Positions 20,229 through 33,706 of a DNA stretch of 64,000 nucleotides are shown here, piece after piece; position 1 is the stretch's first letter; the number at the start of each line of letters is the position of its first letter. The notes under the pieces were generated by a model. That model saw only the letters and a list, made by a program, of their open reading frames with translations, did not search any database and was not told the origin of the DNA. Source of the stretch: a virus (Duplodnaviria > Caudoviricetes); IMG/VR virus record IMGVR_UViG_3300033120_000865, positions 1 through 64,000 of that record. One strand, given 5' to 3'. The position numbers and the translations under genes are program-made.

Positions 20229-20696
20229 TTAATCATTAATTAATAACCAATCTTCAGCAGTTAAATCATCATGTTGAAATGTGTATGTATAAGCTTTACC
20301 TTCAGTATCTTGAATAAAGAAAGAAGGGTAAAAAGCAATATTATCTTTAGTTAAATATAAATAATCTACATCAAGACCTAACCATGCTCTTCTTGTAACT
20401 TTTGCTCCTTCTTTCATTTTAGTAAGAGCTTCACTAAAATTACTTAAAAATGGATTTTCAACATCTGCAACATCAGGATTACAAACAGGACAATTCTCTG
20501 GATTTCCTGAACAAGAGATTACTTCTTCTTGCACTTCTTGTTTTAATTCACTTTCATCTTTTAGTCCTTCAATTGCTATTTTTAATGTAGCCATTACTAA
20601 CTTACCAAAAATATTTTCTTTAAGGAAATTTGTTGCAAAATCCTTATTTAATTGGGTGATGTCAATTTCTTTTCCATCTTGATAAATTCTTATCAT
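20229..20696 (-). CDS. DUF2829 / Tad2-like domain protein
   Basis: C-terminal NFSEALTKMKEGAKVTRRAW...DLTAEDW. Confidence 0.7.
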   Translation of the reverse strand: MIRIYQDGKEIDITQLNKDFATNFLKENIFGKLVMATLKIAIEGLKDESELKQEVQEEVISCSGNPENCPVCNPDVADVENPFLSNFSEALTKMKEGAKVTRRAWLGLDVDYLYLTKDNIAFYPSFFIQDTEGKAYTYTFQHDDLTAEDWLLIND

Positions 20697-20700
20697 AAAT

Positions 20701-21840
20701 TTAATTTTTAATATTAATTTGTTTAAAACTCTTTATATTTCCAAGCATTTCTGCTCTAAAATGTTGTGGAAAAATACAATGCCTTGACTCTACTAAATGA
20801 AATGTCCTCATACTAGGATAGATAGGATTCCCTTTTGAATCCTTAATAGCAAGTCCAAAATGTTTTTTTAAATTATATCTTTCATCATTAGGATTAAATA
20901 CTGTAAATACATAATCAGCATCTTCTGCTAAATTACCTGTATCTTTAATATCATCTGATGTTGGATATAATTGGTCTCCAGCATGTCTTATTCTATCTAC
21001 ATCAGTCATACCTCTATTAGTATGTATAATAGGTACAAATGTGTAACCACACCAGTTTCTTAACTCTACCATATATTCAACCATCTTATCTACAGTTTGT
21101 TTCATCTGCCAACCTCTTTCATTAAGAAGTTTTCTTAAGTGGTCCATAATAATAATAGTGTACTTTTCTGGATGGTCTGACACATATCCACCTATTCTTG
21201 ATACTTTACCAGAATCATAACTGACAAATCTACCAGATTTTTCTGCATGTTTTTTGAGATATTTATAAATACCAGTTGGATTATCTTTTTGCTCTATAAA
21301 TTTTATATAGCCTTTTTTAATCTGTGTACCATTTTTATCAAATTCTCCAAACAATGAAATAATTCTAGTATCATAAACAACTTTTAAAGCATCTTTAATA
21401 CTTTCTTTAACTTTGATAACATTTCCATTATCATCTTGCATTCTTCCTCTTAAATAATTAGGAGATAATGGGATAGTAGTTAATACTTTACCTGCTTCAG
21501 TATAAGTTACACCTTCATCTAATTGGATTGTCTCAATACCAAAATCATGATATAAAAAATATGCTGCAAAGTCAAATTCTTTACTAATTCTATCTAATTC
21601 AAAAGAGAAATATATCCATTCAACTGGAATATTATGTTCCATAGCATATAAATAAGGCTGAATAACAAAGGAATAATCTACAAATGTACTTTTACCAGCT
21701 TTTGCAGCAGCAGCAACTCCATATATTCTTCCTCTTTGTACACCATTTATTGCTCTTGAAACATTTATTAATCCTTCTCCCATTGGTAGTCCTTTATTAC
21801 CACCTTCTTGACCTTTTTTAAATTCTTCAATTAAATTCAC
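20701..21840 (-). CDS. DnaB-like replicative (SF4) helicase
   Basis: AKAGKST, YFSFE, IIMDH, HTNR, DIKDTGNLAEDADYV. Confidence 0.85.
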   Translation of the reverse strand: MNLIEEFKKGQEGGNKGLPMGEGLINVSRAINGVQRGRIYGVAAAAKAGKSTFVDYSFVIQPYLYAMEHNIPVEWIYFSFELDRISKEFDFAAYFLYHDFGIETIQLDEGVTYTEAGKVLTTIPLSPNYLRGRMQDDNGNVIKVKESIKDALKVVYDTRIISLFGEFDKNGTQIKKGYIKFIEQKDNPTGIYKYLKKHAEKSGRFVSYDSGKVSRIGGYVSDHPEKYTIIIMDHLRKLLNERGWQMKQTVDKMVEYMVELRNWCGYTFVPIIHTNRGMTDVDRIRHAGDQLYPTSDDIKDTGNLAEDADYVFTVFNPNDERYNLKKHFGLAIKDSKGNPIYPSMRTFHLVESRHCIFPQHFRAEMLGNIKSFKQINIKN

Positions 21841-31690: not shown

Positions 31691-32010
31691 TTAAAGGATT
31701 AATAATAATTTGTTAGTTTGTTGTGGACCTCTTGCATAATTTTGTAAAAAATAATTATCTACAATAGAATCATATATCATTTTTGCTCCAAAATGAAGCT
31801 TATCTTTAGGAAAATTATCAAAAAATTGTTCTATTGAAATATTAGAAGGAGTGTAATTTAATGAATTAATTTTTATCTTCTGAGATAATGAATAAGCTGA
31901 ACCACTATAATTAATAATATAATAACTATTACAACTAATATTATAAACAATACTTAAATATCCATTTTGATTATAAATGGTTCAAAAGGCAATAAATTTG
32001 ATTTTTTCAT
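31691..32010 (-). pseudogene. hypothetical gene with apparent 1-nt deletion after codon ~11 (C-terminus KLLLIL)
   Basis: ATG overlaps the upstream TGA: MKKSNLLPFEP, then the -1 frame reads IYNQNGYLSIV...TNKLLLIL for about 95 codons. Confidence 0.5.
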
Positions 32011-32507
32011 AATTGAATATTAGATGTTAAAAAATATTTTATATTCATTTTTTCAAACATTTCCATTAGATTTTTATTATGATTTGATAAAATTAAGTAA
32101 TCATAAGTAATTGATTCTCTAGTTAACTCTTCTGTTCTACTAAATTCTATTGCATCAGCAACTACTTCTTCATGTATTCTTGTGATTGTTGAACCAGTAC
32201 AACTAAAGTCATCAATTATAATATTAATATTGTCTATTGAATATCTAGTTTGTATCTTTTGTGAATGAGATTTCTCTCCTCTTTTTTTAATATGGTCAAT
32301 AAAAATATTTTTATTAATATACACACTTAATAAAGAAGCTAATATAGCACCTGAAGAACCAGTACAATATACCACTATCTTTTTTTCTGTAGTTTCAAGT
32401 ACAGGTTTTAATATTTCTGCTACTTCAATAATATAATCTCTAGCAGATTTAATATTCATACCCACTGGATATGGAATTTCACCACATTTTAATTCAATTA
32501 GTTCCAT
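32007..32507 (-). CDS. type I phosphoribosyltransferase-like protein
   Basis: PRPP-binding motif IIIDDFSCTGSTI, TGSSG; start moved to 32507 because the track's longer start overlaps the tmRNA 3' exon. Confidence 0.72.
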   Translation of the reverse strand: MELIELKCGEIPYPVGMNIKSARDYIIEVAEILKPVLETTEKKIVVYCTGSSGAILASLLSVYINKNIFIDHIKKRGEKSHSQKIQTRYSIDNINIIIDDFSCTGSTITRIHEEVVADAIEFSRTEELTRESITYDYLILSNHNKNLMEMFEKMNIKYFLTSNIQL

Positions 32508-32553
32508 AAAAACTCTTTTAATGTTTAATAAATAGTGGACTTGCTGGGAATCG

Positions 32554-33221
32554 CTTTCCCTAATGATTGAAAAATTCAAGAATTAAATTTTCTCTTTGTA
32601 ATTTTTCTTCTTCAGTATATTTACCATTTGCTTTGGTTGCTTTCTGAATAAGATTATAGATTTTAATTCTATGAACTTTTTTTGGATGTATTGATGTAAG
32701 TTTATTAGCAACAGCTAAAGCATTTCTATAAGCATATTTTAAATCATAAGCATCTTGGTGATTTTCTTTCTTTGCTTTTTTCAAAGAAATATTTCCTATT
32801 ATACCAATATCTTTATAAATAAAATCTCTAATTTCTTCAAGTATATTTATTTCATTGTTATGAAAAGATAATTGAAGACTTTTATTAGTACCTTTAGTAT
32901 GTTTGACTGCTGTTACACTTCCATCAGCATCAAAAAATCCTGTAATATATTTCCAATTCATAGTATTTAATTTAGACTACAAAGATGGGGTAAATATACC
33001 ACAATTCCAAACATTTTCTCATATTTCTATGAGGATTGGACTATATCATCACCTGTTCTAGATGTTGCTTACTCTAGGCTCACCTTAGTGTCCTTAGTCT
33101 CTGAACCTTCCACAGTCTTCCCTGTGGCTTGGCTGCTGATTGGCATATCTTATCAGACTTAGCTTTCCAGTCAATTCAAGCAATTTTTAACTATATATCC
33201 CTATATAGTGGGTCCAATTTA
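32554..33221 (-). mobile_element. group I intron (IA-like) in the tmRNA T-loop, 668 nt
   Basis: P1 GGGUU/GACCC with U-G splice pair; P AAUUGACUGGAAA; Q AAUCAGCAG; R UCAGAGACUA; S AUGAUAUAGUCC; P3 UUGCUU/AAGCAA; P9 CUCAUA-GAAA-UAUGAG; terminal G at 32554; P10 AAUUG/CGAUU. Confidence 0.93.
32560..32961 (-). CDS. intron-encoded single-motif LAGLIDADG homing endonuclease
   Basis: YITGFFDADGS motif, 133 aa, located between P9 and the intron terminal G. Confidence 0.92.
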   Translation of the reverse strand: MNWKYITGFFDADGSVTAVKHTKGTNKSLQLSFHNNEINILEEIRDFIYKDIGIIGNISLKKAKKENHQDAYDLKYAYRNALAVANKLTSIHPKKVHRIKIYNLIQKATKANGKYTEEEKLQRENLILEFFNH

Positions 33222-33390
33222 AACCCAGGTCCTTAAATACATTCAAATAAATAGATTATACAAGTTTAATTACATTTCTTTTAATTCTTTATGCTAGAAT
33301 AGAGTCAACTGATTAATCAGTTAAATTCCACCACTTTATTTTGAAAAAACAAAGAAAACATCAATTTATTGTGACTATTATAGTCTGCTA

Positions 33391-33501
33391 TTATGCAGCA
33401 ATTAAGTCAAGTACTTGCACTTCTGTTTCTACCTGTGCATTCAAGGCAATCACTTTAGGATTAGAAATCTCTAAAGATGAAATGGTAACATTATTGTTGC
33501 C
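33391..33501 (-). other. tmRNA proteolysis-tag reading frame (36 codons + stop)
   Basis: UAACU then GGC resume codon: GNNNVTISSLEISNPKVIALNAQVETEVQVLDLIAA*. Confidence 0.8.
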
Positions 33502-33612
33502 AGTTAAAATAAATTAATAATCAATTTTTAATGTGTAGCTTATCAACCACATACTTGTCTATTTATTCTAATAATATCCAGTCAAAGCCAGTCAAGCCCA
33601 ATTGTATTACAT

Positions 33613-33644
33613 AAAAAGGTAATAATTTATTTTATTACCTTTTT
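33613..33644 (-). terminator. terminator-like hairpin just upstream of the tmRNA
   Basis: AAAAAGGTAATAA/TTATTACCTTTTT. Confidence 0.55.
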
Positions 33645-33706
33645 ACTATAGTAAAATAATACAGAGTTTCTCTCTCTACTGGTTATCCAGGTGATTTTTT
33701 ATTGTA

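Follow-up and report, generated by a model that had tools for sequence, protein, structure and literature searches.

The 64,000-nt window of the phage record IMGVR_UViG_3300033120_000865, by which we mean the whole stretch of DNA analysed here, contains a tmRNA gene whose T-loop is split by a group I intron with its own LAGLIDADG homing endonuclease gene. We consider it likely, at a probability of about 0.8, that a functional phage tmRNA gene was invaded by a mobile group I intron, with splicing, tagging and homing as the proposed steps. The initial annotation had placed the split gene at 32536-33599, and its coordinates were correct to the base. The locus has the following features.

33612 to 33645, no strand assigned: long hairpin just upstream of the tmRNA 5' end (z-score -4.35)
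33222 to 33599, minus strand: tmRNA exon 1 (ARAGORN, after splicing), with the 5' acceptor strand, D-loop, helix 2, pseudoknot 1 and tag frame, and at its 3' end the T-stem 5' strand and the first two T-loop bases
33391 to 33501, minus strand: tag reading frame, 36 codons (GNNNV...DLIAA) and a stop, followed by a second stop
32554 to 33221, minus strand: group I intron of 668 nt, inserted after UU at T-loop subsite 3
33017 to 33221, minus strand: ribozyme core (RF00028, 90.3 bits; alignment with six relatives)
32980 to 33011, minus strand: putative Bacteroidota sigma-A-type promoter (TTTG, 20 nt, CATCTTTG), between P9 and the start codon
32560 to 32961, minus strand: LAGLIDADG homing endonuclease gene, 133 aa, single-motif, after P9
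32536 to 32553, minus strand: tmRNA exon 2, with the remaining T-loop, the T-stem 3' strand, the 3' acceptor strand and the discriminator A

The two exons together form the expected tRNA-like end of a tmRNA. The 5' end GGGCUUG (33599-33593) pairs with 32543-32537 in seven of seven positions, and the G3-U70 pair and the discriminator A at 32536 are present as originally described; the CCA end is not encoded. The T-arm halves lie 668 nt apart, and deletion of 32554-33221 restores the anticipated UUCGAUU loop in CUGGG-UUCGAUU-CCCAG, a T-arm with a 5-bp stem and a 7-nt loop. From the gene spliced in this way, ARAGORN calls a 397-nt tmRNA at its default threshold. When the junction 33222/32553 was scanned together with 48 others shifted by 1-3 nt at either end (49 in total), it was the only one to give a tmRNA, and none of the 48 neighbours did. 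A reading of the insertion site as position 5 was rejected, as it violates the U(-1) rule. We also built a nucleotide profile from 57 further tmRNA genes, excluding the closest relatives, and it found a single full-length match in the spliced genome (E 2.8e-26, with a large correction for AT bias). In its unspliced form the window yields no tmRNA by ARAGORN or Rfam, and RF00023 has no significant match at the locus on the genome, as had been foreseen for standard finders. Because 668 nt interrupt the T-loop, splicing is required for alanine acceptance.

In two related phage genes (L001 and L003) the exons are 78-81% identical to those of the window, and both genes keep the acceptor stem and helix 2b paired despite changed sequence; L001 also preserves every pair of pseudoknot stem 2 although the sequence differs. 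Helix 2 and pseudoknot 1 are present, with the outer part of helix 2 (2a) being weak. A metatranscriptome contig is ~94% like 188 nt of exon 1, a match too weak to show expression. GenBank phages contain nothing closely related to either the tmRNA or the endonuclease, the latter searched against 50,697 records, and we found no exact matches to the spliced junction, the tag DNA or the upstream motif in viral contigs. The hairpin at 33612-33645 may be a terminator-like or leader element. Upstream of the tmRNA position there is also a 60-nt element with two small hairpins, shared at 84% identity between the window (33640-33700, minus strand) and L002:3722-3780; Rfam gave no match to it, and viral contigs contain no exact copy.

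The tag frame starts at 33501 in a Bacteroidota-type resume context and ends in Ala-Ala. Compared with L003, it has six synonymous codon changes and one non-synonymous change, and third positions hold seven of the nine substitutions; at the level of this sequence comparison, the frame is shown to be under selection. The tag chosen by ARAGORN itself was rejected, as it falls where L001 and L003 show no conservation, while the upstream frame is conserved in both. The commonest tag length is 10 residues (PMC11915505), and many of the related phage tmRNAs have tags of 20-30 residues.

These features bear on whether the tmRNA could be a decoy or pseudogene, acting as a landing pad or as an inhibitor of host trans-translation. 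Such a role has a precedent in phage DS6A, whose CDS-less tmRNA inhibits the host tmRNA (PMC11915505), and would agree with the location of the gene in a variable block and with the failure of RF00023 to recognise it unspliced. However, the acceptor stem, T-arm, helix 2 and pseudoknot 1 are intact and show compensatory changes, and the tag frame is conserved with its Ala-Ala end and synonymous bias, so that we regard a decoy as very improbable. The tmRNA gene is accessory to the phage, and the intron in it is real and intact.

The intervening sequence has the anatomy of a group I intron, with every core element that had been named from the sequence. In a focused scan, Rfam RF00028 matches 33017-33232 with 90.3 bits (cut-off 50; E 1.7e-23). 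Scanned over the whole window at the gathering threshold, Rfam returned nothing, intron included, which we attribute to a filter effect because the focused scan gives 90 bits. The core comprises P3-P4-P6-P7 with the guanosine-binding pair; P4, P6, P8 and a P7.1 hairpin are all present, and the other elements were placed as follows, all on the minus strand.

33219 to 33215: guide of P10 (5 bp)
33215 to 33209: 3' strand of P1 (6 bp, with U(-1) paired to G)
33183 to 33178 with 33070 to 33065: P3 (6 bp)
33099 to 33095 with 33043 to 33039: P7 (5 bp)
33033 to 33018: P9 with a GAAA loop
32554: terminal G of the intron

P1 and P10 are kept across 40 position-3 introns, with means of 5.3 and 3.6 bp, and in L007, which has a differing T-loop, the P10 guide has changed to match. 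The base before the P1 G is C in most relatives and U in the window, where P10 is kept as a U-G pair. From this anatomy and established group I chemistry, we infer that the intron of the window splices: the precursor would fold the ribozyme, free guanosine would attack after the U paired to G in P1, and the terminal G would dock in P7 while P10 aligns exon 2, thereby restoring the UUCGAUU T-loop. Host enzymes would then trim the ends, add CCA and charge the RNA with alanine via G3-U70, and the spliced RNA with host SmpB would free stalled ribosomes and add a 37-residue tag ending in LIAA. In four mapped runs, all of them contigs, we found no joined exons at the splice sites; as the RNA runs contained only relatives, this speaks neither for nor against splicing. 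Three Bacteroidota genomes (Marinoscillum, Ekhidna and a Prolixibacteraceae MAG) have no tmRNA over Rfam's cut-off other than the split gene, and therefore the intron family most likely splices in vivo. In L001:3712-4407, a near-identical tmRNA has at the same site a quite different core (65%, with longer P7.1 and P8 regions) and an endonuclease 74% identical to that of the window, a possible case of intron replacement.

The ORF at 32961-32560 scores above the Pfam cut-offs for PF00961 and PF14528, in agreement with its first description as a complete 133-aa LAGLIDADG gene, and 6 nt separate the end of its stop codon from the 3' splice site. The motif and lysines are invariant across 52 homologues, and the predicted structure (pLDDT 95) has a fold that matches I-MsoI, I-CreI and I-OnuI. 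It contains one motif helix with an acidic catalytic residue, as in single-motif LAGLIDADG enzymes, which are homodimers.

Ahead of the ORF we noticed a putative internal promoter, absent from the initial annotation, whose CATCTTTG element has one mismatch to the Bacteroidota -7 consensus TAnnTTTG (PMC9723704). The relaxed pattern has 12 matches genome-wide. The element is visibly conserved ahead of the ORF in most sense-oriented relatives, the strict pattern occurs in 7 of 40 position-3 introns when both orientations are pooled, and the promoter persists in L002, where the tmRNA and ribozyme are absent. This conservation suggests that a Bacteroidota-type promoter in the intron, 3' of the catalytic core, likely drives a separate endonuclease message, since the excised intron and the structured precursor would be poor templates. 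The locus L002:3490-4430 has the closest endonuclease (78%) and keeps the promoter and ORF with no tmRNA or ribozyme core, in a gene context resembling that of the window; it is possibly a deletion remnant that left a free-standing endonuclease.

We propose that the homodimeric single-motif enzyme would cut the near-palindromic T-arm DNA of intron-less tmRNA genes, the cut site being placed solely from the intron position, and that repair from the intron-bearing copy would spread the intron among co-infecting phages and occasionally between a phage and the chromosome of its host. The intron would thus be a selfish passenger in an accessory gene. The T-arm of a phage tRNA-Ala gene (genome 93548-93570, minus strand, beyond the window) is similar to the core of the homing site, so the endonuclease must discriminate tmRNA from tRNA genes by the flanking bases.

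Natural empty alleles of the site are found in related phages, where the initial annotation had called for a survey. At the intron-less alleles L153 and L119, 27 of 28 bases spanning the site are identical to the window; this figure also describes the intron-less tmRNA of phage G001, whose terminase is 62% identical. In G001 the tmRNA gene is located just upstream of the same block as in the window, namely a 208-aa gene, a helicase and a polymerase, and we found no endonuclease homologue in this phage.

The exon, intron and endonuclease also have discordant histories. Relative to the window, L007 is 58% identical in the exon and 91% in the intron core, L001 is 78% and 65%, and the Prolixibacteraceae copy is 57% (shuffle level 53%) and 80%. 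Exon and intron similarity therefore rank L007 and L001 in opposite order, a reversal to be read with the caveat that cores are generally more constrained than exons. In the endonuclease tree, which like the others is unrooted so that the direction of transfer is not readable from it, cellular and viral rows are interleaved with at least three forced label changes, and the sister group of the window's clade includes Prolixibacteraceae copies (support 98/97). On this sequence evidence the ancestry of the endonuclease is shown to be mixed between phage and host. The core of L023 groups with that of the window (97/88) and has an antisense endonuclease from a distant clade, indicating that ribozyme and endonuclease reassort. 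A single clade of the window, L001 and L003 introns was not rejected (p-AU 0.088). Taken with the empty allele in a syntenic phage, these histories bear out the earlier view of the intron as mobile, which it probably is, and phages appear to exchange the intron-split tmRNA form with Bacteroidota hosts.

An alternative is that the intron still splices while the endonuclease no longer homes, being inactive or a maturase only, and that inheritance is now vertical. Maturase activity is known for a LAGLIDADG protein of a bacterial rRNA intron (PMC3984707), and the intron is fully adapted to the CG avoidance of its genome: it contains no CG where 14 would be expected, which suggests long residence in CG-poor phages rather than a very recent arrival from a host. 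Against the loss of homing, the ORF is full length with invariant motif residues, its end branch in the tree is short (0.17), the promoter is conserved and empty alleles exist; we therefore consider this alternative unlikely. The whole genome (G000) has 19 CG dinucleotides against ~1855 expected and four GATC sites, and one of the remaining CGs is in the tmRNA T-loop, at 32552.

The initial annotation also argued that the ribosome-rescue RNA of the phage depends on splicing. This stands for the mature RNA, which needs splicing to form; it does not extend to a dependence of the phage, which probably does not need the tmRNA itself. Such a need is doubtful because a closer phage is without tmRNA and no SmpB is encoded: in G002 (terminase 90% identical; genome 94% complete), ~0.9 kb stands in place of the 11-kb block that holds the tmRNA gene in the window and we found no tmRNA-type T-arm, and a search of the phage genome found no SmpB gene.

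The same comparisons speak to a further possibility, in which the endonuclease has been co-opted to cut the host's intron-less tmRNA gene so that the protected, long-tag phage tmRNA takes over rescue. The T-arm core is common to host-type tmRNA genes, relatives of the enzyme occur in chromosomal tmRNA genes of Bacteroidota, the long tag is under selection, and the host-type promoter could fire early. Yet stable host RNA already made would survive the cutting of its gene, related phages have an intron-less tmRNA and no endonuclease or lack tmRNA altogether, and selfish homing accounts for all the data unaided, which leaves co-option quite improbable. We thus retain invasion of a functional tmRNA gene by a mobile, selfish intron as the preferred reading.

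The phage record is 102,594 bp long and estimated to be complete, with seven tRNA genes and a late ORF of 4342 aa. Its terminase is 57% identical to those of Flavobacterium psychrophilum Fpv3-type phages, with further matches to Bacteroides, Cellulophaga and crAss phages, and PHROG matches identify crAss-type terminase, portal and capsid genes in a genome of ~100 kb with very large late genes. Fpv3 has been grouped among the crAss-like phages (PMC7886860). By these gene matches the genome is a crAss-like phage, as it had been called, and is kin to the Flavobacterium Fpv3-type phages. The tag's resume context, the type of promoter and the subsite of the intron all agree with a host among the Bacteroidota. 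Two sequencing runs of one study, one of which may be the source sample, cover the tmRNA region with zero differences, and since they agree an assembly error is unlikely.

Two other genes were also noted. For the phosphoribosyltransferase-like gene behind the tmRNA (32007-32579, minus strand), an ATG near 32507 is a likelier start than the intron-internal TTG and gives 166 aa, as called in L238. The window gene at 20701-21840 is unbroken, while its orthologue in the close relative G002 (L117:17989-20879) consists of three pieces, two of which flank a group I core (20419-20605); the tmRNA gene itself sits in a variable block.

To place the locus in its family, we surveyed homologues of the endonuclease and found 86 at 45-78% identity. 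A single-protein scan of viral contigs found no homologues, while an alignment-based scan did. The 71 distinct homologue loci were seeded on the endonuclease, so no frequency is derivable from them, and near-duplicates inflate the counts. Fifty of the 71 are inside the T-loop intron of a split tmRNA gene, eight are just behind one, four adjoin a truncated intron core and nine have no core nearby, two of these nine adjoining an intact tmRNA gene. Among the 58 distinct split tmRNA genes, 30 are viral, 11 cellular and 17 unassigned, where a gene was labelled viral by its collection or gene context and some of the cellular copies derive from MAGs; 40 of the 58 are at position 3. Within these 40, 39 have the endonuclease inside and 23 are viral. 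In this endonuclease-seeded survey the cellular cases are Bacteroidota without exception. Members outside the intron (L055-L058, L084, L012, L014, L020, L071 and L038) occur in both orientations, either directly following a split tmRNA gene whose intron has no ORF or next to an intact tmRNA gene. A Prolixibacteraceae copy (L053:2501-2900) aligns over 95 residues only, in one frame, and may be frameshifted, that is, decaying.

As a tentative extension of the preferred reading, which we hold to be possible, Bacteroidota phages would be the main reservoir and vehicle of the endonuclease-bearing position-3 intron, and a homing site shared by phage and host tmRNA genes would let the element move between phage and chromosome, while exon, ribozyme and endonuclease would each reassort independently. 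The strongest version would add that the phage enzyme cuts host ssrA during infection.

The architecture of the locus is not new, as endonuclease-bearing tmRNA introns are already catalogued in bacteria. The earlier view that T-loop introns are rare in bacterial tmRNA, and the locus hence novel, was overstated: 883 unique intron-form tmRNA genes are known at four T-loop subsites, the main site occurring in 21 phyla, and 36 of the 883 (4%) contain an endonuclease gene (PMC11915505). In the founding set of 844, the endonuclease follows P9 in four (PMC11915505). Position 3 is confined to the class Bacteroidia, with nine instances in Supplementary Table 2 of that study, and a dedicated covariance model for intron-form tmRNA exists (PMC11915505; Nawrocki, Petrov and Williams 2025). 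The window's intron resembles those position-3 forms as a T-loop group I intron at subsite 3 that follows the U(-1) and terminal G rules, is under 700 nt long and has its LAGLIDADG gene after P9; it differs in being phage-borne. The same study counted 79 tmRNAs from phages without mentioning in its text that any has an intron form; nor did we find a report of intron-form tmRNA in phages in the literature searched. The 39 of 40 position-3 introns with an internal endonuclease, a count from an endonuclease-seeded survey that gives no frequency, stand against 4% in the bacterial catalogue.

The initial likening to the tmRNA intron of Clostridium botulinum, which has been cited as self-splicing (PMC2729099), is apt insofar as both are group I introns in the T-loop of the same host gene; it does not hold for the subsite, since the window's intron is at the Bacteroidia-specific position 3 whereas that of C. 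botulinum is at position 7 and is 287 nt long, endonuclease-free and chromosomal. The endonuclease shares with I-CreI and I-MsoI the fold (Foldseek E ~5e-6, probability 1.0), the single motif and the acidic catalytic residue in the motif helix. In contrast, its identity to them is only 16-25% and it belongs to a distinct 133-aa family tied to tmRNA genes. The T4 td, nrdB and nrdD introns have an endonuclease gene in a peripheral loop with its own intron-internal promoter, and home between co-infecting phages. The intron of the window is alike in its peripheral-loop endonuclease, its putative intron-internal promoter and its proposed homing; however, the T4 introns interrupt protein genes, encode GIY-YIG or HNH enzymes and use T4 promoters, whereas here the intron sits in a tmRNA gene and its putative promoter is of the Bacteroidota kind. 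Endonucleases in phage introns usually belong to families other than LAGLIDADG (PMC3984707).

What is new is a phage-borne position-3 tmRNA intron with a sense endonuclease after P9, together with a wide phage carriage of intron-split tmRNA and its apparent exchange with Bacteroidota hosts; the finding does not reveal a new mechanism. It places a test system at hand, with a compact endonuclease and a natural empty allele in a related phage, and the cultured Bacteroidota Marinoscillum has the same kind of intron in its only tmRNA gene. Counts of phage tmRNA genes are too low, since intron-split copies escape the standard finders. Mobile copies, few in the published bacterial catalogue, are many in phages, and introns likely enter bacterial tmRNA genes by way of phages.
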